Source: an uncultured Planctomycetota bacterium
GTDB taxonomy: Bacteria; Planctomycetota; Planctomycetia; Isosphaerales; Isosphaeraceae
Assembly (NCBI GenBank): GCA_963845755.1
Contig: CAWJTV010000036.1
Location: forward strand, 288,001 to 352,000
Reading direction: 5' to 3'
Length of the DNA: 64,000 bases
Positions 11,173 to 53,196 of this stretch are shown one piece after another (within the stretch, counting starts at the first letter, position 1; every line of letters starts with the position of its first letter). The notes under the pieces were generated by a model, which saw nothing but the letters and a program-made list of their open reading frames with translations, made no database searches and was not told where the DNA came from. Both the position numbers and the translations under genes were made by a program.

Positions 11173-11272
11173 CGTCCCCGCTTTTGCTTCAGTTAAGCCC
11201 GTCCCCGTTTTTGCGTTCGTCCCCGTTTTTGCTTCGTCCCCGTTTTTGCGTTTTTGCCGTCCCGTTTTTGCC
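11173..11272. repeat. Cluster of 5 direct copies of cgtccc(c)g(c/t)ttttgc
   Basis: Copies at about 11173, 11200, 11218, 11235 and 11258, separated by short irregular linkers. Confidence 0.85.
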
Positions 11273-11321
11273 GTCGTGGAGACCGACTCAATCCCGGGGC
11301 GGCGGAATTCGAGCGAATCCT

Positions 11322-19826: not shown

Positions 19827-19965
19827 CGCGGCCTTTGGCCGCAACCCAATCGCGATTCCGAATTCGCGATTCGCGATTCCCGAGGGGGGATGATTCGGAT
19901 TCGCGATTCTCGATTCCCGAGGGGGGATGATTCGGGAATCGGGAATGTCGAATCGGGAATCGCCA
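19827..19965. repeat. Heptamer-repeat hairpin element (gattc-core then gaatc-core) with cgcggcct(t/c)ggccgcaaccc leader
   Basis: gattc-containing 7-mers, a duplicated cccgaggggggatgattcgg block, then inverted ggaatcg units. Lies between convergent genes. Confidence 0.8.
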
Positions 19966-22813: not shown

Positions 22814-23230
22814 TCAGTAGTAGCCGCCGTATAGCCCCCCGCCGGTGGTTCCACCGCCGGTCGTCCCGCCGCCGGAAGTCCCACCACCAAGGGATCCACC
22901 GTCGATGAGACCGCCATCGCCAGATCCGGGAATGGTCGTGCCGTCGCCATTGGAACCGCTGGTGGTCCCGCCACCGGGGGATCCGCCGAGTGGATGAGTC
23001 ACATGCGGGCTGATGGGATGAGGTTTGGGATGAACCTTGGGGTGGACCTTATGATGGACCTCGGCGTGAGGCTTATGATGAACCTTGGCGTGAGAATGGG
23101 CCCTGGCATGCGGAACGTGGGCGTCAATCTGCGCCATGTGAGCAGCGGGCGCGAGGCCGACGGCGCTCGGGGTGACCCGCGCCTCCAGGCCGTCGCACCC
23201 GTTGGGGCGAAAGATGTTTTGTTTCCTCAT
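22814..23230 (-). CDS. Small His-rich/Gly-rich extracellular protein
   Basis: MRKQNIFRP...GLEARVTPS (LExRxLL-like), His-rich middle, Gly/Thr-rich tail ending GLYGGYY. Confidence 0.7.
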   Translation of the reverse strand: MRKQNIFRPNGCDGLEARVTPSAVGLAPAAHMAQIDAHVPHARAHSHAKVHHKPHAEVHHKVHPKVHPKPHPISPHVTHPLGGSPGGGTTSGSNGDGTTIPGSGDGGLIDGGSLGGGTSGGGTTGGGTTGGGLYGGYY

Positions 23231-24846: not shown

Positions 24847-26825
24847 ATGGGGATCCGCTTGAGGAAGGCTCGCGCGAATGCCGGCGACAGCGGTACCGGT
24901 GGCGGTTCGCGGAAGCGATGCCGCAGAGTCCGGCAGCCCGTCCCGGAAGTTCTCGAAGACCGCCGGTTGTTGACGGCGTCTCTCCAGCCGATCTCCAATC
25001 TGAGCGTCCCGGCGCAGCAGGGTTACACCTTGCCGCTCGACGGCAGCGGCACGACCGATGACCAGACCTTCACCGTGACCATGGACTCGGGCAACCCGGA
25101 TATCACCGCGAGCATCCCCCAACAGAACTTCTGGACGATCGATGTCCAGTACACCGACCCCTCCAACCAGAACAACGACTTCACCGGGCCGCTCACCTTC
25201 CAGCTCTTCCAGACCCTGACGCCCAACACGGTCAGTGAGATCGAGAAGTTCACCACCGACGGATTCTACAGTGCTGCCGGTGATCCGAATAATGGTAATA
25301 AGAACGGGATCTCGATTCCCCGGATCGCGCCGGGCTTCGACGGTTTGACGGATTACATCATCCAGGGCGGAGCCATCAGTTCCACCAACACCGGCGGCCA
25401 GAGCGGGGAGCCGGGCACGCCGTTCCAGAACGAGAATGTCCAGCAGTTGGCCTTCACCGGCACCGACCAGTTGGCGATGGCCAACGCGGGGAATACCGAC
25501 AGCAACGACACCCAGTGGTTCATCACGACCGGCTCGCCCAACAGCGGGCTGGGGTACGGTTACACCATCTTCGGCCAGTTGGTGCCGAATCCCACGAACG
25601 AAACTCCGGCTCAGACCCTGCTGGCCAAACTCACCACGCTCAATCCCAACGGCTTCAATACCAATGTTCCAACGCCAACTCCTGTACCCACTTTCACGGC
25701 ATCGACGTCCTCGGCGAATCCCAGCGGGGTGTTGATCATCGACACCTCGCAGGCCCGTCCGGGCGACTCCGCCACGTTCACCGTGACCGCCCACGATGGC
25801 ACCTCCACCGTCAGCCGGACGTTCACCGTGACCGTCGGCGCCTACGGCGGCCCGACCGACCCGCCCATCCCTTTCAAGCCCCTCGCCAGTCCGGTCACCG
25901 CGTCCGTGGCCGAAGGCAAGTCGACGACGGTCACTCTGGTCGGCCAGGATGGTTATCCGGATCCCACCTACACCGGGTGGACGCTCAGCTATTCCCTGGT
26001 GTCGCAGCCCAGCGACGGCACGATCAGCGACTTCAATGCGTCGGCCGGCACGTTCGTCTACACGCCCAAGCCGGGTTTCACGGGTACCGATCCATTCCAG
26101 TACCAGGTCCAGGAGTCGTACGGACCGTCCTTAACGACCGAGAGCATGGCGACGAACGTGACGCTCACCGTCACACCGACCCCAACGCCCACACCGACTC
26201 CGACACCGACTCCAACGCCCACACGACTCCGACACCGACTCCAACGCCCACACCGACTCCGACACCGACTCCAACGCCCACACCGACTCCAACGCCCACG
26301 CCGACTCCGCTCGTGACGGTTACGGGGATCGCGTTGAAGACGAACAAGAAGCACCAGGTGTCCGAGGTTTTCGTGACATTCAGCGGGCCGGTAAACGTGA
26401 CCGAGGCGGATAACACGGCGACCTATCGCCTGGCCACGCCGGGGAAGCATGGGTCCTATACCGCCAGGAACGCCGGGATCATCAAGCTGAAGTCGGCGAC
26501 CTATGACCCGACGGACGATCAGGTCACGCTCGTGCCGAAGAAACCCTTTGTTATCAGCAAGAAGGTCCAGCTCGAGGTCATCGGTACTCCACCGTCGGGC
26601 TTGCAAGACGGCGCGGGGCGATACATCGACGGCGCGAACAACGGCCAGGCCGGCGGGAACGCCGTCGCGATCCTCTCGAAGGGTGGGGTAAGCATCGACG
26701 CAATGACTCTGGCAAACCCTTCCGCGGGACCGAACACCGCGACGAACGAGATCGACGTCCTGCTCGCCCAATCGGAACTGGACCGTCTCGTTCATTCCCG
26801 GTCGGCGAAGAAACATCCGGGTTGA
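24847..26825 (+). CDS. Extracellular cyclophilin-like protein with Ig-like domain and Pro-Thr linker (1-nt deletion in the PT repeat near 26224)
   Basis: EVLEDRRLLT; IIQGG, LAMANAG, TQWFIT and YTIFGQL; FVYTPKPGFTGTDPFQY; (TP)n. The C-terminal domain is in the frame ending at 26825. Confidence 0.85.
26172..26310 (+). repeat. Coding tandem repeat encoding (Thr-Pro)n
   Basis: Repeating acaccgactcc/aacgccc units. Confidence 0.9.
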
Positions 26826-43052: not shown

Positions 43053-46000
43053 CTAGACTGGCCGCCTCCTCGGTACGCTCAACTCCTCCGTGAACCGCTC
43101 GAGAGCCACGTCATGGACCAGCTCGTGAGGCGAGGTCGAGTTGTCAATCGCCGACAGCGGTGCGACCGTGTTCCCGCTACGGGTGTCGAGTGTGCCGATC
43201 GCGGGGGTCGTCGGGGTGCTGACGGTTGTCATTCTGGGCGCGTTGTCCTGGCCGACTTCCACGGCGGCATGGGTCGCCGGAGGCGATGGGGTGACCGGAT
43301 CGATGAAGATCCCGCTGAGCACCGCGTTCACGCCGGCCTGGTGCGTGATCGTGATCGTCACATCGCCTTGCACCTTCCAATCCAGATACACGCCGTTCGT
43401 GAACGACGAGACCGTCTCGGTGTCCAGGATCTTCCCCGACCCCGCGTCGCTGATCTGGATCTGCTCGACCCGACTCGGCGAGCTTTGCAGGTCGAGGAAG
43501 TACAGCTCGATATCGTGCAGTTGCCCGTCGATCAGGTCCAGGTTCACCGTGAAGCTGGTGGGAGAGTACCAGCACTCCTCGATCCGGCCGGATCCGCCCG
43601 GGTTCTGGAGCGCCTGGGGAGCGGTCGTGCTGGCCGACCAGACGTGGGTCAATTCCCCGCTGGGCGAGACGGTGGCGTAGGGGGACAGGCTGGGCGTGTC
43701 GCCGATGACGTCGTAGCCCTGCGTGCCGTAAGTCTTGATCCAACTGCCCTGCGTCGTCGTGTCCGTCTTGAGGAACGTGGCCGAAGAGGAGGTCGTTGCA
43801 GCCGGATCGACGAAGATCCCGCTGAGCACCGCGTTCACGCCGGCCTGGTGCGTGATCGTGATCGTCACATCGCCTTGCACCTTCCAATCCAGATACACGC
43901 CGTTCGTGAACGACGAGACCGTCTCGGTGTCCAGGATCTTCCCCGACCCCGCGTCGCTGATCTGGATCTGCTCGACCCGACTCGGCGAGCTTTGCAGGTC
44001 GAGGAAGTACAGCTCGATATCGTGCAGTTGCCCGTCGATCAGGTCCAGGTTCACCGTGAAGCTGGTGGGAGAGTACCAGCACTCCTCGATCCGGCCGGAT
44101 CCGCCCGGGTTCTGGAGCGCCTGGGGAGCGGTCGTGCTGGCCGACCAGACGTGAGTCAATTCGCCGCTGGGCGTGACGGTGGCGTAGGGGGACAGGCTGG
44201 GCGTGTCGCCGATGACGTCGTAGCCCTGGGTGCCGTAAGTCTTGATCCAACTGCCCTGCGTCGTCGTGTCCGTCTTGAGGAACGTGGCCGAAGAGGAGGT
44301 CGTTGCAGCCGGATCGACGAAGATCCCGCTGAGCACCGCGTTCACGCCGGCCTGGTGCGTGATCGTGATCGTCACGTCGCCTTGCACCTTCCAATCCAGA
44401 TACACCCCGCCGGTGAACGACGAGACCGTCTCGGTGTCCAGGACCGTCCCCGACCCCGCGTCGCTGATCTGGATCTGCTCGACCCGACTCGGCGAGCTTT
44501 GCAGGTCGAGGAAGTACAGCTCGATATCGTGCAGTTGCCCGTCGATCAGGTCCAGGTTCACCGTGAAGCTGGTGGGAGAGTACCAGCACTCCTCGATCCG
44601 GCCGGATCCGCCCGGGTTCTGGAGCGCCTGGGGAGCGGTCGTGCTGGCCGACCAGACGTGAGTCAATTCGCCGCTGGGCGTGACGGTGGCGTAGGGGGAC
44701 AGGCTGGGCGTGTCGCCGATGACGTCGTAGCCCTGCGTGCCGTAAGTCTTGATCCAACTGCCTTGCGTCGTCGTGTCCGTCTTGAGGAACGTGGCCTGAC
44801 TGAGCTGCGCAACCATGATCGACACGGTCGCCGTGTTGCTCGTGGCGGTCCCGTCGGTGTCCTGGTATGTGAAGCTGTCCGAGCCGGTGAAGTTCGACGC
44901 CGGGGTGTAGGTGAATGACCCGTCGCCGTTGAGTGTGAGCGAACCGTGGGCGGGCCCGGCGACGAGTACCGCACCCAGCGCCGTGGTGTCGGGATCGGTG
45001 TCGTTGCCCAGCACACCGGGCTTGGCGACGGTCAGGGGCGTGTTCTCGCCCGCCGTGTAGCTATCGTTGCTGGCCACCGGCGGGGCCACGGTGAGGGTCA
45101 CGGTGGCCACATTGCTGCTGAAGTGGCCGTCGCTGGCCTGGTACGTGAAGCTGTCGGTCCCGACGAATCCGGGGTTTGGGGCGTAGACGAACGTGCCGTC
45201 GGAGTTGAGCAGGAGCTTACCGTCGCTCGGGTTGCTGATCAGACTCGCGGTGAGGGTCGTGCCGGGGTTGGGGTCGGTATCGTTGGCCAGCACGCTGCTG
45301 GGCTGCGCGATCGTGGTATTGAAGGCCACTTGACCGGTCAGAGGCGCGGTCGCCCCGTCGCTGTGCTGCACAAAGGTGGCGGCGAACGAGGTGATGGTCC
45401 CGGAGGAATTGTAGACCGCCTGAGATACCGTGAACTCGCCGGTGATGGAATCACTCCCGCGACCGTCGCCATACACGTCCAGGCCGGGGACGCCGGATGT
45501 CTGAGACGGGAAGATCGTGGCCCCGGTGTAGGTCCCCGGCATGAGCGGGCCCGAGTAGGGAGCCTGGAAGTCGAGCGTCCAGATTTCGCCGGACATCGAG
45601 ACCCCGATCTGGACCGTACTCGAGAAGGCTTGCGCGGTGATGGTGCTGTTGGCCGGCGTGAAGTCGTAAGGTATCCCCGCGCCGATGAAATCGCCCGGCT
45701 GGCTATTCATGACCACGAAAGTCGAGCCCGCGCCGGCCGGCAGCACCGAGTTCTCGGCGACGGAGTACGTGTCATTCTTGGCGGTCGGAGGAGAGTCGGG
45801 GGCCAGTGTGACCGTGGCGACGTTCGAGGTGCCCTGGCCGTTGTTGGCCATGTAGGTGAAGCTGTCGGTCCCCGAGAAGCCGGAGGTCGGGGTGTAGGTG
45901 AACGACCCATCGGTGTTGAGCGTGAGCGAGCCATGACTCGGCCCGCTGACCAGTTGTGCCGTGAGACTCGTGCCGGGCTGAGGGTTGGTGTCGTTGGCCA

Positions 46001-49000
46001 GCACACCGTTGGGCAAGTTGTTCGTGAAATTGAAGTCGACCTGTCCGGACAGCGAGGCGGTTGACCCATCGCCGTATTGAACGAAGCTGGCGGCGAACGA
46101 GACGATGTTGCCGGAGGCGTTGAATACCGCCTGAGATACCGTGAACTGGCCGGTGAGGGTGTTCGCCCCCCGGCCGTCGCCGCTGACGTTCAGGCCGGGG
46201 ACACCGGCCGCCTGGAATGGGTAGCGCGTGGCGCCGGTGTAGGTCCCGGGTACGAGCGAGTCCGGGGTCGGGGCTGCGAAATCGAGCGTCCAGGACTGGC
46301 CGGACGCCGAGACGTTGACCTCCACGGTGCTGGGAATCCCCCCGATCCAGAGGGACTGGGCGGTAATGGTGCTGTTGGATGCGGTGAAATTGTAGGTCTG
46401 CCCCTGGCCGATGAAGTCGCCCGGCTGGCTGGTCATCGTCAGGGAGGTCTGGCCGGCGGTCGTCGTCAGCGTCGAGTTCGGCGTGTACCCGTACGCATCG
46501 TTCTGGGCCAGCGGGACCCCCACCTCGAGGGTCACGGTGGCCACGTTGCTGTAGAGCACGCCGTCGTAGGCCAAGTAGGTGAAGTTGTCCGCGCCGATGT
46601 AATTGGTGGTCGGCGTGTAGGTGAACGACCCATTGCTATTGAGCGTCAGCGTGCCGTGCGATGGCCCGGCGAGGACCGAAGCGGTGAGCGCGGTGGTGCT
46701 GGGGTCGGTGGAATTGGTCAGCACGCCTGGGGCGGCGACCGTGAGCGCCTTGCTTTCCGCCGTCGCATAGCTTTGATTGGCCGCCACCGGCGGCTGGGCC
46801 ACCGTGAGGATCACCGTCGCCACATTGCTGTCGAGCTCGCCGTCGCTGGCCTCGTACGTGAAGCTGTCACTGCCGAGGTAATTGGTCGCCGGGGTATAGC
46901 CGAACGAGCCATCGGCGTTGAGCGTCAACGTGCCGTGCGATGGCCCGGTCACGAGCACGGCGGTGATCGGGTCGCCGTCCGGATCCTGGTCCGGGGTCAG
47001 CACGCCCGGGGCGACGACCGTGAGCGTGGTGTTCTCGGGGGCGGCATAGCTCTCGTTGTAGGCCACCGGCGCCGCGTTACCGCCGTAGACCACGATCGAG
47101 ACCGTGGCGACGTTGCTGTAGGCGATGCCGTCGAAGGCCTCGAAGGTGAAGCTGTCGGGCCCGGTCGTGTTCGTCGTCGGGGTGTAGGTGAACGAGCCGT
47201 TGGATTGGAGCGTGAGAGTCCCGTTCAACGGGGCGGAAACGAGGGAATAGGTCAGGGGATTGTTGTCGGGATCGTTGGCCGAGACCTGGCCGGTCAGGAC
47301 CGTGTTCTCGCTGGTGGTCGCGGCCTGATACGCGGCGATCGGCGGCGAGTCGGGGACGGACTGCGTCTCGAAGGCACCCATGTCGACGGCGCCGCTGGTG
47401 GGCCGGGGCAGACCACGCTGGTCGGTCGTGACGCCGCTGACGGCGACCCCGGCGCCGATGGCCGGACTGCCGGTCTGAAGGGCCATGGTCTGGGTGAGTC
47501 CACCGTTACTCGCCAGCGCGGCCAGCCCCGGGTTGGCGATGCCGACGAGGTTGCCGCCCATCCCACCGGTGATCCCGCCCGAGCCGCCGGTGCCGATCAG
47601 GTTATCGGTGCCGGCGACGCCGGTAGGATCGTTGCCGCCGATGTCGCTGGCGGCGCCGCCGGGGGCAATATTGCCGGCGACGATCGTGTCGGTCAGGGTC
47701 GCCGCGCCGGTGTAGCCGTAGAGGTTCAGGTTCGCGATGCCGCCCCCCGTGGCGGACGTATTGCCGCTGATCGTGCAGGCCGTCAGGGCCGTCGGGCCGT
47801 AGTTGGCCACACCGCCGCCGCCCACCAGCGCGGTGTTCCCGGTGATCGTGGTGTTGGTCAAGGTCGTGGTGCCGCTGCCGGTGCCCAAGCCGCCACCCCT
47901 CCCGGAGACGGAATTGCCGGTGATCGTGCTGCCGGTCAGGGTCAGCGGCCCGAGGCCGTTGACGCCGCCGCTGTAGGCCGCCGAGTTGCCGGTGAAGGTA
48001 CAATCCGTCAAATTCGCCGTGCCGAAGTCATTGAGGCCGCCGCCAACATTCGCGGTGTTGCCACTCAGCGTGCAGTCGGTCAAGTTCGCCGTGCCGGAGA
48101 ACCCGTTCTGGAGCCCGCCGCCAGAGGACCCGCTGCCGTTGTTCATGGCGGTATTGCTGCTGAGCGTGCAGTCGGCCAGGTTCACCGTGCCGTCGTTGCT
48201 GAGCCCGCCGCCATCTCCGAGTTGCCCCGCGGTGTTCCCGCTGATGGTGCAACCGGTCAGTGTGAGCATGCCGGTCTTCTCGTTTTCCAATCCACCGCCG
48301 AGACTGGAGCCGGTCGTGCCGGAGGTGTTGCTGGAGATCGCGGTGTCGATCAAGGTCGCAAGGCCGGCGTTATCGAAGGCGCCGCCGTTACCTTTGGCCG
48401 AATTCCCGCTGAGCGTGCAATCCAGCAGGGTCATCCAGCCGCGGTTGTACAGGCCGCCGCCATTGGTCCCCGCGGTGTTGCCGCTGAACGTGACGCTGGT
48501 GAACGTCATGAAACCGTGGTTGACCACGGCGCCGCCGGTGCCGGTGCTCGAGCCGCCCGAGATCGTCAGATCCGAGATCGAAGCCGTCTGTCCCCCCTGG
48601 GGAACGCCGTTCAAGGTGAAGACCTGGCCAAGCCCGCCGCCACTGACGGTCAGCGACCCGGCGCCCGGACCGTCGATGGCGAGCGCCCCGAATTGGTTGT
48701 CCAGGTCGAGGGGACCCTGGGCCAGGGTGATCGTCGCGGGATTACTCAGGTTGAAACTGATGGCGGCCCCCCCGGGGCTCGCATCCGCCTGCTCGACGGC
48801 CCAGCGCAGCGTCCCCTGGGCGGGGTTGTTGGCCGGGGCGCTGTCGGCCGTGCTGGTGACGGTGAAGCTCCCCGACAGCAGGCAGCGGTCCTCCAGCACC
48901 AACATCGCCGGCCTGACCCGGTTGCGAGCGCCGGCCCTACCCCACTTTCGCCCTCGTTTTTGGCCGCTCGCCCCGTTCCGCTCCGAACCCACCGCCGTAC

Positions 49001-49055
49001 CCATCCGCCGCCGGAACCATCCCGTGTGGCCGTTCATCGGTACTCTCCTCGTCAA
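43053..49055 (-). CDS. Large extracellular adhesin-like protein: Pmp-like beta-helix, choice-of-anchor-Q-like region, Big_9/tandem-95 Ig repeats, 3 C-terminal 169-aa repeats
   Basis: VLEDRCLLS; SGNxA...GGG repeats; NGGLTQTMALQTGSPAI...DQRG...DMGAFE; GSFTYTP...GxDSFTY repeats. Intact 2000-aa ORF. Confidence 0.9.
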   Translation of the reverse strand: MTRRVPMNGHTGWFRRRMGTAVGSERNGASGQKRGRKWGRAGARNRVRPAMLVLEDRCLLSGSFTVTSTADSAPANNPAQGTLRWAVEQADASPGGAAISFNLSNPATITLAQGPLDLDNQFGALAIDGPGAGSLTVSGGGLGQVFTLNGVPQGGQTASISDLTISGGSSTGTGGAVVNHGFMTFTSVTFSGNTAGTNGGGLYNRGWMTLLDCTLSGNSAKGNGGAFDNAGLATLIDTAISSNTSGTTGSSLGGGLENEKTGMLTLTGCTISGNTAGQLGDGGGLSNDGTVNLADCTLSSNTAMNNGSGSSGGGLQNGFSGTANLTDCTLSGNTANVGGGLNDFGTANLTDCTFTGNSAAYSGGVNGLGPLTLTGSTITGNSVSGRGGGLGTGSGTTTLTNTTITGNTALVGGGGVANYGPTALTACTISGNTSATGGGIANLNLYGYTGAATLTDTIVAGNIAPGGAASDIGGNDPTGVAGTDNLIGTGGSGGITGGMGGNLVGIANPGLAALASNGGLTQTMALQTGSPAIGAGVAVSGVTTDQRGLPRPTSGAVDMGAFETQSVPDSPPIAAYQAATTSENTVLTGQVSANDPDNNPLTYSLVSAPLNGTLTLQSNGSFTYTPTTNTTGPDSFTFEAFDGIAYSNVATVSIVVYGGNAAPVAYNESYAAPENTTLTVVAPGVLTPDQDPDGDPITAVLVTGPSHGTLTLNADGSFGYTPATNYLGSDSFTYEASDGELDSNVATVILTVAQPPVAANQSYATAESKALTVAAPGVLTNSTDPSTTALTASVLAGPSHGTLTLNSNGSFTYTPTTNYIGADNFTYLAYDGVLYSNVATVTLEVGVPLAQNDAYGYTPNSTLTTTAGQTSLTMTSQPGDFIGQGQTYNFTASNSTITAQSLWIGGIPSTVEVNVSASGQSWTLDFAAPTPDSLVPGTYTGATRYPFQAAGVPGLNVSGDGRGANTLTGQFTVSQAVFNASGNIVSFAASFVQYGDGSTASLSGQVDFNFTNNLPNGVLANDTNPQPGTSLTAQLVSGPSHGSLTLNTDGSFTYTPTSGFSGTDSFTYMANNGQGTSNVATVTLAPDSPPTAKNDTYSVAENSVLPAGAGSTFVVMNSQPGDFIGAGIPYDFTPANSTITAQAFSSTVQIGVSMSGEIWTLDFQAPYSGPLMPGTYTGATIFPSQTSGVPGLDVYGDGRGSDSITGEFTVSQAVYNSSGTITSFAATFVQHSDGATAPLTGQVAFNTTIAQPSSVLANDTDPNPGTTLTASLISNPSDGKLLLNSDGTFVYAPNPGFVGTDSFTYQASDGHFSSNVATVTLTVAPPVASNDSYTAGENTPLTVAKPGVLGNDTDPDTTALGAVLVAGPAHGSLTLNGDGSFTYTPASNFTGSDSFTYQDTDGTATSNTATVSIMVAQLSQATFLKTDTTTQGSWIKTYGTQGYDVIGDTPSLSPYATVTPSGELTHVWSASTTAPQALQNPGGSGRIEECWYSPTSFTVNLDLIDGQLHDIELYFLDLQSSPSRVEQIQISDAGSGTVLDTETVSSFTGGVYLDWKVQGDVTITITHQAGVNAVLSGIFVDPAATTSSSATFLKTDTTTQGSWIKTYGTQGYDVIGDTPSLSPYATVTPSGELTHVWSASTTAPQALQNPGGSGRIEECWYSPTSFTVNLDLIDGQLHDIELYFLDLQSSPSRVEQIQISDAGSGKILDTETVSSFTNGVYLDWKVQGDVTITITHQAGVNAVLSGIFVDPAATTSSSATFLKTDTTTQGSWIKTYGTQGYDVIGDTPSLSPYATVSPSGELTHVWSASTTAPQALQNPGGSGRIEECWYSPTSFTVNLDLIDGQLHDIELYFLDLQSSPSRVEQIQISDAGSGKILDTETVSSFTNGVYLDWKVQGDVTITITHQAGVNAVLSGIFIDPVTPSPPATHAAVEVGQDNAPRMTTVSTPTTPAIGTLDTRSGNTVAPLSAIDNSTSPHELVHDVALERFTEELSVPRRRPV
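43296..44796 (-). repeat. Three near-identical 507-bp coding tandem repeats
   Basis: gaggaacgtggcc ends at 43782, 44289 and 44796, giving a period of 507. Confidence 0.95.
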
Positions 49056-49670
49056 GGTGAAATGCTCTCAGCAACCTCTGGACGTGATCGCATCATTTGG
49101 AGCAGAACGGATCGCTCGTCGAGGGTCCGGTGCCGAAAATACGTCCCTGGATCGCCGCTGGCTCGGTCGCTGAGTCCCGGTCTCCAGAGGCCGTATTCCC
49201 AACGTTGTTGCGGGTTCCTTCGACGGACGCACCACTTCCCGGCTCCACCATGGATAGTATACTTACGTTCACTGTTCCTGGCAAGATCAAACTCGGGAGG
49301 TGCTGCGATTTTCCGATTCTTCGAGGGCTCCATGCCCGTCGTGGCCGTTGGATGTGTAAGAGCGATCACATGTCTGGGTGTCCGAGAAGCGACGTCGCTC
49401 CTGGCCCAGTTTCCGGGATCCTCTTCGGTTCCATAACCTCACGAAACAGGCGCACTTGTGGGCACGACCACACAAGAATTGAGGCATTGGAACAGAATGT
49501 CTCGGGGGATGCAAGGCATTAGCTGGATTCGTCAACAAAAAATTGACTTGAGACGTGACTTTCGCATCATCACCGGGAGCGCACGGGTTGCTCGCAGGAA
49601 CCCGAAGCGCCCGAAGCCGCGCAGGTGACGTTCCAGTCCGGGTTCCCCACTCCTGCCCAACCCAATCGCC

Positions 49671-50569
49671 TCACGCACTGCCGATCACGCCGAACCGGTG
49701 CCGGAGGCCGGCGATCCAGTCGGCAAAGTCCGCGGGCAACGGGGCCTCGATGCGCAGACCCGCACCGGTGAACGGGTGAAGGAATCCCAGCGCTTCGGCG
49801 TGAAGGGCCTGGCGTGCGAATGGGAAGGGAAAGGGCGGGCGGTCGGCGGGCCGGTAGACGACGTCGCTGACGACCGGATAGCCGGACTCGGCAAGATGGA
49901 TGCGAATCTGGTGGGTCCGCCCGGTCTCGAGCCGGCAGGCGACGAGGGTCGCTGCGGTGCCGAAGCGCTGGAGGACTTCGTAATGGGTGACGGCCGGCAC
50001 GCCCTGGCCGGCGACGCGGGCGGCCCCGCGGCGGCGGTCGCCGCGATCGGCCACGAGCGGCAGGTCGATCGTCCCGCTCGCCGGTTCCATCGCCCCCTCG
50101 ACGACCGTCAGGTACGCGCCGTTCGATGGTATGGGCGCGGAACAACGCCTGGAACGGCCGCAGTGCCCTGGGCGCGCAGACGATCAGGATCACGCCCGAG
50201 GTGTCGCGGTCCAGCCGGTGCACGATGCCGACATACGGACGGGTCTCACCCCGGGTACGGGCCAGGTAGCGCCCGGCGCGCTCCAGCAGCGTATCGGGCT
50301 CGCGAGCCGGCGTCGGCTGCGTCAGCAGGCCGGCGGGCTTGTCCACGATGAGGATCTGCCGATCCTCGTACAGCACCCGGATGCGCCGCGCCGCGGTTTC
50401 CGGCCGGGGCCGGTTCGGATCGTAATGGAACGCGATTCCGGACTCGACGTCCTGCCCCGGCTCGAAACACGTCTGACCGGCCACGTCCACCTGCCCCGCG
50501 CCTTACGGACTCCTGCGCCCTTCGCCGCGACAACCCGAACCGTTCCGAGACCAGTTTGTCCAGACGCAT
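49671..50569 (-). CDS. RluA/RluD-family pseudouridine synthase (frameshifts near 50495 and 50120)
   Basis: MRLDKLVS (S4-like), VDKPAGL, HRLDRDTSG, LETGRTHQIRIH and RQALHA. Confidence 0.92.
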
Positions 50570-50594
50570 CGCTCGCCTCTCGATCGGTCCGCCG

Positions 50595-50660
50595 GTCGGG
50601 TGTTCCGAGAGCACCGAATCCGCGGGCCATGGCCGATTCGGTGCTCACAGAGCACCCGAC
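50595..50660. repeat. REP doublet, copy 3
   Basis: gtcgggtgttccgagagcaccgaatc / gattcggtgctcacagagcacccgac. Confidence 0.85.
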
Positions 50661-50682: not shown

Positions 50683-51090
50683 TCAGTCCTCGCGGCGACG
50701 ACGTCGCGGGCGTTCCTCCATCTCTTCGTCGCGGCCCTCCTCCGCATCCACGTTGGGCGTCGACGTCATGGCCTGATTCACCAAATGGTCTGCCAGCTTG
50801 GGATGGACCTTCAAGACCAGCTCCCGAACGATGACGTCGCTCAGGTGGCAGGCCGAGACGATCTCCTTCAGGTTCTCGCCGCCGGTCTTGAAGTAGGTCA
50901 GCAAGTACGTCCCCTTCTTGTGGCTACCGATCGGGTAAGCCAGCCGACGTTCATCCCACTGGCGAGACGCCACGATCTCCGAATGGTTCTTCATCAGGAT
51001 GTCGTGCACGTGCTTGACCGTGTCCTCCCAGGCCGTGGCGGCCTTGGAACTGTCCAGCAGAAACATTCCCTCATAAGTACTTGCAGACAA
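50683..51090 (-). CDS. rpsF: 30S ribosomal protein S6
   Basis: YEGMFLLD and WDERRLAYPI...KGTYLL. TTG start with AGGGAG RBS. Confidence 0.95.
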   Translation of the reverse strand: MSASTYEGMFLLDSSKAATAWEDTVKHVHDILMKNHSEIVASRQWDERRLAYPIGSHKKGTYLLTYFKTGGENLKEIVSACHLSDVIVRELVLKVHPKLADHLVNQAMTSTPNVDAEEGRDEEMEERPRRRRRED

Positions 51091-51107
51091 TTGTTGGTTC
51101 TCCCTTT

Positions 51108-51177
51108 GTAGTAGTCAGTATTCAGTAGTCAGTAGTCAGTGGTTGGTAATCGGTAGTCGGTTGTCAGTAGTCAGTAC
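51108..51177. repeat. Heptamer array, 10 units (consensus tcagtag)
   Basis: gtagtag tcagtat tcagtag tcagtag tcagtgg ttggtaa tcggtag tcggttg tcagtag tcagtac. Confidence 0.95.
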
Positions 51178-51544
51178 ATTCCCCGTCCTGGGTTAGAGAG
51201 TTCTTCAGTCCATTACTCAGGCGAGCGACCTCGTTTGTCAGACTGAACAACCCCGCGTGAAACCGTTCCGCCAGGTCGTTCAGACGGCATGCGATGATGA
51301 GCTGCGTTTCCACTTCCTGCAGCGAGCCGTACGCGATCGAGAGGTAGCGTAGAAAGTCTCGAGTCGCATGACGCCCCTACCCTTCGGCGATATTCGAGGG
51401 GACCGAGACAGCAGCTCGACGGAGCTGATTCGTCAAGCCGAACCGCTCCTTCGAGGGAAAATCTTCCGTCGTTTCGTATACGAGTACGACCAAATCCATG
51501 GCTTTCTGCCACACAATCAAATCTCGAAAATGTCTGACGCCCAC
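51164..51544 (-). pseudogene. Four-helix-bundle protein (23S rRNA IVS protein / TIGR02436 family) with an in-frame TAG at codon 56
   Basis: Not in the ORF track. My translation from GTG 51544: [16 protein letters not shown]...[29 protein letters not shown]...FLRYLSIAYGSLQEVETQL...TDY-stop. The TAG is at 51377-51379. Confidence 0.92.
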
Positions 51545-51555
51545 GGTTGCGTTTC

Positions 51556-51625
51556 CTACTGACCATTGACTTCTGACTCCTACGCCCTAACTACTGACTA
51601 CTGATTACTGACTACTGACTACTAT
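51556..51625. repeat. Heptamer array, 10 units (consensus ctactga), inverse of 51108-51177
   Basis: ctactga ccattga cttctga ctcctac gccctaa ctactga ctactga ttactga ctactga ctactat. Confidence 0.95.
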
Positions 51626-52175
51626 TAAAACGGTTCATCGCCACATCAACACCCTGGGTAACCCACACGGCGACAGCCTGGGTGGCGAGGATCTCGGCAT
51701 CGTCGATAATCGGTCGTTCGGAGCTTCGGAACCGGCTGAGGACAAAGTCCGAGGCGTCGCTGTTCTCGCGGTCGCCCAGGCCGATGCGAAGGCGGGGAAA
51801 CTGTTCGGTGCCCAGGTGGGCGGCGATGTCGCGGAGCCCTTTCTGGCCGCCGTCGGAGCCGCCCGGCCGGATCCGCAGCTTGCCGAGTGGGAGACTGAGG
51901 TCATCGCAGAGGACCAGGAGGTCGGCCGGCTCCAGCTTGTAGAACCGCATCGCCTGGCCGACCGAGCGTCCGCTGAGGTTCATGAACGTTTCGGGCTTCA
52001 GGAGCAAGACCCGGCGGAAGTCGATCTCGATCTCGGCGAGCAGGCCTTCGAACTTGCGGGCGAATGCCGGCCGGGCTCCTCCTTGCGCCAGGCGGTCGAC
52101 CACCTCGAAGCCGAGGTTGTGCCGGGTTGCCTGGTATTTGCTGCCCGGGTTACCCAGGCCGACCACTAATTTCAA
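51612..52175 (-). CDS. pth: Peptidyl-tRNA hydrolase
   Basis: KLVVGLGNPG, TRHNLGF, KPETFMNLSG and RLRIGLG. TTG start at 52175. Confidence 0.96.
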   Translation of the reverse strand: MKLVVGLGNPGSKYQATRHNLGFEVVDRLAQGGARPAFARKFEGLLAEIEIDFRRVLLLKPETFMNLSGRSVGQAMRFYKLEPADLLVLCDDLSLPLGKLRIRPGGSDGGQKGLRDIAAHLGTEQFPRLRIGLGDRENSDASDFVLSRFRSSERPIIDDAEILATQAVAVWVTQGVDVAMNRFNSSQ

Positions 52176-52357
52176 CGTCGCCAACGCCGCGGCTCCGTCC
52201 CGACCGAACCGGACCCGACCCGAGCGAGGGCGGTCGGTCCCGACCCATCGCCAGGTCCGCGCCGCGGTGGTCAGGCTCGCGAGCCGGCGGACCGGGCCAG
52301 GCCAAACCAGGCCAGGCCAGGTCGCGCGGGGCGATCCGGACCACGACACGATCGGGA

Positions 52358-53036: not shown

Positions 53037-53196
53037 CGCGGCCTTCGGCCGCAACCCAGGAGGAATTCCGAATTCCAGATTCGAGATTCCAGATTCGAGA
53101 TTCGAGATTCCGGAGTCGCGATTCCAGATTCAGAAATCCTCCCATCGGGAATCGGGAATGTTGAATCTGGAATCTTGATGATGGAATCGAGGATTC
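53037..53196. repeat. Heptamer-repeat hairpin element in the rplY 5' UTR
   Basis: cgcggccttcggccgcaaccc, then about 11 (a/g)gattc(c/g) units, then about 7 inverted ggaatc units. Confidence 0.85.

Follow-up and report, generated by a model that had tools for sequence, protein, structure and literature searches.

Why should a gene for a small four-helix-bundle protein lie between pth and rpsF, enclosed by two inverted arrays of heptamers that run into the ends of both host genes? The DNA that poses this question comes from an uncultured Planctomycetota bacterium (Isosphaeraceae; GCA_963845755.1, contig CAWJTV010000036.1), from which one stretch of 64,000 nt (288,001-352,000), here called the window, was analyzed. 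The genome carrying the window (G000) is represented by an assembly that is 88% complete. Read along the minus strand, rplY is followed by pth, the cassette, and rpsF; the relevant features are given below in window coordinates.

50683..51107, minus strand: host gene rpsF, with a TTG start at 51090 and the ribosome-binding site AAAGGGAG at 51100-51107
51108..51177, minus strand: 3' C-rich arm, ten CTACTGA-type heptamers
51164..51544, minus strand: cargo gene, a PF05635/TIGR02436 four-helix bundle, pseudogene here
51377..51379, minus strand: in-frame TAG at cargo codon 56, directly 3' of the conserved NIAEG motif
51554..51623, minus strand: 5' G-rich arm, ten AGTAGTC-type heptamers
51612..52175, minus strand: host gene pth, with its stop codon at 51612-51614 inside the G-rich arm
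53063..53196, no strand assigned: gene-less inverted heptamer pair from another unit family (GATTCCA/GAATCTG), placed in the leader of rplY within this operon and missing there in G001, a genome of the same genus

The original prediction described ten heptamers in strict phase on each side. Their number and phase hold, and TRF reports AGTAGTC x9.6 at 51110-51176 (80% matches) and CTACTGA x9.7 at 51556-51623 (74% matches). The units are not exact copies, however, but degenerate ones, of which 7 of 20 are exact and 18 of 20 have at most two mismatches. The proposed fit to the host genes is as tight as was claimed. The pth TAG lies within the upstream arm (protein end ...FNSSQ*) and the cargo TGA within the downstream arm, whose end at 51108 adjoins AAAGGGAG, itself 9 nt upstream of the rpsF TTG. 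An AGGA at the inner end of the G-rich arm is located 9 nt upstream of the cargo GTG. After MNRFN the pth protein ends with the arm-encoded SSQ*, and most relatives from the same family go on with GGN codons there, often encoding Gly-Pro. The arms could also form a stem on the transcript, as had been anticipated: they close the predicted fold of the minus-strand RNA (z = -6.6), and ungapped pairing over 68 positions yields 52 Watson-Crick, 3 G-U, 6 A-C, and 7 other combinations. In the nearby rplY-pth spacer, short pentamer runs of CCGAC and GGCCA at 52195-52223 and 52291-52321 are shorter in G001, and in G015 (L003) the rplY-pth junction carries a gene-less GGTCATT-type pair.

Membership of the cargo in PF05635/TIGR02436 is clear. 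When read with X at the stop, it exceeds the curated cut-offs of both PF05635 (E 1e-36; 125.7 bits vs 33.8) and TIGR02436 (E 1e-33; 115.6 bits vs 24). The gene had been taken for an intact reading frame of 126 codons, and this description must be abandoned because an in-frame TAG at codon 56 was overlooked; the premature stop also accounts for the absence of the 518-bp unit from the ORF track. At this position homologs carry Q (44), H (14), or Y (12) among the 103 loci with the motif read. A contig of 151 nt from run X2 (51321-51471) covers the TAG with no differences. Assembly error was rejected: runs X1 and X2, which contain the organism at a depth of about 2 and may share their source with the assembly, together yield three contigs of 151 nt that match both arm junctions and the stop without a difference. 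Amber read-through was rejected too, since the genome assembly has no tRNA with a CTA anticodon and pth itself ends in TAG. The copy at pth-rpsF is therefore a pseudogene whose protein cannot act from this site, which makes the locus a pointer to a class rather than an experimental object. Internal stops interrupt two of the five PF05635 copies in the host genome, compared with 9 of 253 loci overall. The second paralog with an in-frame TAG (L194, G000:C38:71021-71323) has GAAGGAT/GAAGGCT arms.

Comparison of the pth-rpsF junctions, which had been recommended, points to an insertion. Thirty relatives were searched and 29 yielded the pth locus; since none of these 29 has the gene between pth and rpsF, the cassette is best regarded as an inserted element. 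One relative (L004) carries a gene-less inverted heptamer pair at this junction, another (L008) a single array, and a genome of the same genus two units containing the pth stop together with a different inverted repeat. These junctions are too diverged to judge target-site duplication.

The arms are also a general property of the family. Homolog flanks were to be examined for inverted 7-nt arrays, and among 105 homologous loci with sufficiently long flanks, inverted arms were present at 89, compared with 28 of 300 controls with swapped partners. Arrays of period 7 stand on both sides in 54 of these 105 loci, of period 6 in 1, and of period 8 in 2. In a wider set of 253 loci (242 long enough for a tree and 239 with flanks), from which short partial profile matches and some full-length ones were left out, 190 of 239 have inverted arms, with period 7 in 150, period 8 in 26, and period 6/12 in 10. 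Together with the absence of the gene from the relatives' pth-rpsF junctions, these counts sustain the prediction of a discrete insert that lacks a transposase and has heptamer arms as its cis ends. Arms flank 35 of 41 loci on viral contigs, and the gene is present on 44 of 72,556 plasmids, mostly cyanobacterial. Three armless loci with weak PF05635 matches (L186, L187, and L188) look like accessory proteins of the Avd type.

The G-rich arm comes first in 149 gene loci vs 16. Both neighbors share the orientation of the cargo in 50 of 67 callable loci and oppose it in 2, an arrangement that would fit expression by read-through. An invertible switch was rejected, as the cargo is antisense in just 2 of 52 loci with co-oriented flanks. 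A defense system was likewise set aside, with no PADLOC match for 90 homologs. Stop codons do not appear to be the purpose of the unit, because 5' units contain them in 56 of 137 cases vs 55 after shuffling; the 3' units (51 vs 31+-4 shuffled) give a partial signal only. A mirrored order of unit variants between the arms (389 vs a null of 357+-6) was disregarded because the alignment had been optimized on the data.

A stem that encloses a gene of this family recalls the intervening sequences (IVSs) of 23S rRNA, in which an S23p ORF of the same protein family lies within terminal complementary sequences (PMC4990558). The original prediction accordingly likened the cassette to an IVS and envisaged a mobile or RNA-level element. 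In an mRNA-level reading, the arms would pair in the transcript and the gene would be either released by RNase III or looped out by the stem, which would place the pth stop beside the rpsF start, with the protein bound to this RNA. The strong predicted stem, the way arms abut stop and start signals of the host genes, and the prevailing co-orientation of cargo and neighbors speak for this reading, as do published reports of RNase III cleavage of IVS stems (PMC4990558) and of G4-competent Xanthomonas repeats that coincide with transcript ends more often (PMC4692102). The cassette at pth-rpsF has the terminal complementary stem of an rRNA IVS, but it lies between protein genes rather than within an rRNA helix, and none of the 253 loci matches the 23S gene of its own genome. 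Its arms are also periodic over about 70 nt and show no wobble bias on the sense strand.

This last point weakens the IVS reading in particular. A strand-neutral count over the arms on the cargo sense strand gave 237 G-U vs 226 A-C combinations, and 35 co-oriented G000 pairs gave 35 G-U vs 37 A-C on the host sense strand. The same count served as a moderate positive control, with 158 vs 100 for tRNA and only 41 vs 35 for 23S rRNA. The arms thus bear no apparent sign of selection for an RNA stem. At pth-rpsF the antisense duplex is the more stable one (-90.3 vs -77.1 kcal/mol). Moreover, nine of 45 gene-less arm pairs of G000 (described below) occur at divergent or convergent junctions, of which the five divergent pairs cannot share one mRNA, and cutting an mRNA without religation leaves spread through DNA unexplained. 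A candidate spliced RNA from run X7, with a joint of 51139 to 51589, proved to be one 172-nt contig matching 30 and about 28 arm bases; it contains no pth or rpsF sequence and is therefore most readily taken for a gene-less hairpin that lies elsewhere. No contig, at a depth of 2-5, joins pth to rpsF sequence. For these reasons we consider the mRNA-level reading unlikely, and RNA effects on the operon may be a by-product under any model.

To our knowledge no function has been assigned to PF05635, for which structures have existed since 2006. The family is under purifying selection, with dN/dS values of 0.17 for 76 pairs at accB-accC and 0.11 for 95 close pairs. The residues Q36, R39, S43, N47, E50, G51, R54, S70, and E73 (L031 numbering) are nearly invariant. 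A model of the intact homolog L031 (pLDDT 98) matches 2GSC (Z 20.4, rmsd 0.7, 107 aligned residues) and also 2RLD, and resembles the Avd structure 4DWL as well (Z 14.7, rmsd 1.5, 102 aligned). No nuclease, recombinase, or transposase was listed above generic helical bundles, a result that excludes nothing.

The likeness to Avd (4DWL, 8UB7) extends beyond the fold, in that both are pentamers according to the literature; Avd binds an RNA stem-loop, which it contacts through all five protomers (10.1101/2023.10.23.563531). By contrast, the cargo reaches only 21.9 bits against the Avd model NF033474 (cut-off 80), no reverse transcriptase or template repeat is located beside the gene, and its neighbors are housekeeping genes rather than parts of a diversity-generating retroelement (DGR). 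One might still imagine that an Avd-like protein helps a reverse transcriptase extend both 3' ends of a break with G-rich units, in the fashion of telomerase. The fold and the consistent lead of the G-rich arm would suit such a repeat writer. However, 19 of 29 array-rich genomes from the family of Luteimonas soli (source of locus L120) lack a PF00078 match in a loose first look at draft genomes, and we regard this proposal as very improbable.

In G000 there are 243 arrays of period 7 (244 before a homopolymer filter), compared with 7, 85, 13, and 77 arrays at periods 5, 6, 8, and 9. Grouping of the period-7 arrays gives 127 inverted-pair events, with 89 arrays left as singles. Leaving out 82 quasi-palindromic events of the GATTC families, 45 pairs were kept, with the G-rich arm first in 44 and with spacers of 15-465 nt. 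These pairs lie between co-oriented genes in 35 cases, between divergent genes in 5, between convergent genes in 4, and in an unknown setting in 1; by our own rough gene calls, their arms are mostly flush with gene ends. The excluded GATTCC-family hairpins, such as those at 53063-53196 and 19850-19962, adjoin the palindrome GCGGCCTTCGGCCGC, and dozens of copies in G000 have a short conserved spacer and behave like REPs or MITEs.

Dispersed gene-less arrays occur mostly in genomes that also carry the gene. In one set of 61 genomes, at least five AGTDGBY triplets were counted in 18 of 31 genomes with a PF05635 gene vs 1 of 30 without, and GATTAV triplets, mostly distant from the gene, in 6 of the 8 genomes that carry the HEKL clade of the protein vs 1 of 53 without. 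GGATGAA was encountered in 8 of 31 genomes with any PF05635 gene vs 0 of 30 without, a count that is not split by clade. In an independent family, that of L120, at least 30 GGGRNTY triplets were present in 26 of 39 gene-bearing vs 3 of 40 gene-less genomes (G200 was unscored and G210 dropped; with G210 the latter count is 3/41). By this single pattern, three genomes without the gene are rich in arrays, and 13 genomes with it are poor in them. Among the 29 array-rich genomes, 4 have GxxExxY genes and 10 a reverse transcriptase match. Within gene-bearing genomes, the dispersed unit agrees with the arms of the best-scoring cassette of that genome in 12 of 14 vs 8 of 16 cases, which is a trend only (p = 0.058). 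Kin genomes are not independent and p-values are therefore overstated; many of the genomes are incomplete. Some unit families of G000, among them AGTAGGC and CAAGTGG, have no cognate gene in the 88% complete assembly.

The repeat unit and its period track the clade of the protein rather than the genome of the host. Across 171 well-armed loci, arms from different genomes are the more alike the closer their proteins are, with similarity climbing from 0.07 in the bin below 30% identity through 0.09, 0.12, 0.15, and 0.27 to 0.56 above 70%. The Mantel rho between arm and protein similarity is 0.20 (0.27 when GC-matched), compared with a maximum of 0.077 in 500 permutations. Arms resemble those of the nearest protein in another genome (0.34) more than those of a distant paralog in the same genome (0.088), and distant proteins in different genomes reach about the latter value (0.085). 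When clades are assigned by N-terminal signature with our own regular expressions, period 6/12 prevails in the HEKL clade (8 of 11 loci) and period 7 in the RTK (13 of 15) and FEDLPVW (10 of 12) clades, and the FEKL..QKA clade is armless in 9 of 9. The 15 nearest relatives of the pth-rpsF cargo protein mostly have AGT-type or related AG/GG-initial heptamers.

Genes of a second family, GxxExxY (PF13366), show the same layout with units of 8-10 nt in the host genome and in L120's family. One such cassette lies at carA-carB, a junction occupied elsewhere by PF05635 cassettes. The names accB, accC, carA, and carB represent our reading of flanking sequence and are presumptive, and bccP is named in Rehm's table. 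In G000, L371-L375 (contigs C34, C27, and C19) comprise four GxxExxY genes, each enclosed by inverted arms of 8- or 9-nt period and one of them split in two frames, and 8- and 9-mer arrays matching GxxExxY arms are found elsewhere in the same genome.

Individual junctions are occupied quickly and repeatedly, in a way that does not resemble the multiplication of a fixed MITE. Of 16 G000 junctions extracted, six were set against their counterparts in five relatives. At one orthologous junction each of three genomes has its own unit family and an unrelated spacer, and another junction has a different unit family in G001 and is empty in G015. A further junction is empty in a genome of the same genus, with the last codons replaced in G000. 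Spacers are mostly unique, which does not agree with the near-identical copies and shared interior expected of a MITE; with one overlapping call set aside, three of those compared are similar to each other. An origin of the spacers as gene remnants was rejected, since only the two real genes match the profile. At one of the six junctions the G000 spacer shares host sequence that is present without arms in G001, and at one junction G001 has a single arm with the same spacer. The host-derived spacer and the lone arm would fit arms that arise one at a time.

These last observations, with the unique spacers, are what would be expected if arrays form and change by slippage and hairpin-templated repair while the gene merely rides along by horizontal transfer and serves an unrelated function. 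Slippage is the published hypothesis for an excess of heptamers (PMC4692102), and the armless state of one clade and of Avd-like copies agrees with a passenger. Yet slippage predicts neither clade-specific periods (6/12, 7, and 8) coexisting in one genome, nor 8-10-nt units around GxxExxY, nor arrays nearly confined to gene-bearing genomes, and this explanation seems quite unlikely.

Repeats of this type have been described before. The GGGAATC repeats of Xanthomonas (PMC4692102) and the TAACTGA repeats of Beggiatoaceae (PMC4679880) likewise form dispersed heptamer arrays with many inverted pairs (70 inverted cases in Xcc; PMC4692102), and their polarity is the same, G-rich after stops and C-rich before starts. 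Neither publication was found to tie the repeats to the PF05635 family, with 'four helix' and 'helix bundle' absent from their main texts. Supplementary repeat 15 of Rehm et al. is located 6 nt past bccP and overlaps the start of XCC0516 (PMC4692102). The published repeats thus include an arm on XCC0516, the crystallized family member 2GSC, which sits in such a cassette; this connection was not found in the text of Rehm et al. The literature compared also includes PMC10053308 and PMC8700078. No link between PF05635 genes and periodic inverted arms was found in a search whose coverage excluded subscription journals and most supplements, and the cassette class is undescribed in the searchable literature.

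MacGregor proposed a translational role for arrays next to start codons (PMC4679880), which brings to mind a domesticated regulon. Here the protein would be a post-transcriptional regulator of the host that binds repeats beside stops and ribosome-binding sites, its own included, with arrays kept as binding sites. Long retention of the accB-accC cassette (13 of 30 loci, dS near 1.4) is consistent with such a role. Quick turnover and swaps of unit family at one junction are not, Rehm et al. saw no expression trend for the repeats (PMC4692102), and arrays are still present here although the cognate gene is dead. A regulon is decidedly unlikely on this evidence.

The nearest precedent is the REPIN-RAYT system (PMC3337134). 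As described there, inverted doublets with variable unique spacers are extragenic, several sequence groups share a genome, and a linked helper gene persists vertically for long periods, as the cassette gene does at accB-accC. The 45 pairs outside the GATTC families are likewise inverted units with variable spacers in extragenic positions. The differences are equally plain. The arms are tandem units of 6-9 nt (heptamers at pth-rpsF) instead of palindromic REPs, they abut and replace gene ends, and the gene enclosed by the doublet encodes a PF05635 four-helix bundle, flanked here by pth and rpsF, in place of a linked tyrosine (HUH) transposase. We judge the chances to be about even that PF05635 genes and their cognate gene-less hairpins form a helper system that is RAYT-REPIN-like without being a member of that group, and that has no recognizable transposase.

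Under this helper model, the gene would be expressed by read-through from the host operon, and the protein of intact members would recognize its own arm type and help arm pairs to spread into the gaps that separate host genes, whether or not these pairs carry the gene. A pentamer might bind the folded-back arms as single-stranded nucleic acid, more probably DNA than RNA. As no catalytic fold is known for the protein, cutting and joining are assigned to repair or replication enzymes of the host. Arms would be flush with stop codons and start signals because host genes would be harmed by a longer replacement. All steps that begin with binding, mobilization included, are inferred. Two points count against the helper model: arms would track the protein tree under co-inheritance alone, and gene-less pairs, by their spacers, do not look copied from a single mobile unit. 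With the AGTAGTC-family helper dead in the host genome, its dispersed pairs would now be orphans.

If the helper model is true, the function of PF05635 and the reason why heptamer arrays abound between the genes of some bacteria but are missing in close kin become one testable system. Binding and mobility assays can draw on the match between clade and repeat for cognate and non-cognate substrates. A demonstration that the protein seeds its repeats would be categorically new. More tentatively, and with greater doubt than assent, we suggest that the periodic repeats of 6-10 nt in many bacteria are the footprints of transposase-less selfish systems, in which a small protein, either a four-helix bundle of the IVS type or GxxExxY, reads or rewrites a repeat grammar of its own. 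Each protein clade would fix the unit and period and would seed inverted pairs at gene junctions across the genome.

Other features of the DNA were noted in passing. A secreted-type protein of 2000 aa with repeated domains (~93-aa and 169-aa repeats) occupies 43053-49055 of the window. It is followed at 49570-50614 by what we take, from the motif HRLDRDTSG, to be an RluA-like pseudouridine synthase, spread across several frames and probably frameshifted. Tandem repeats of period 30 (26172-26308), 17 (11200-11275), and 24 (23014-23094) also occur in the window, and ARAGORN locates a dense one-strand array of more than 25 tRNA genes at G000 contig coordinates ~590256-592942.
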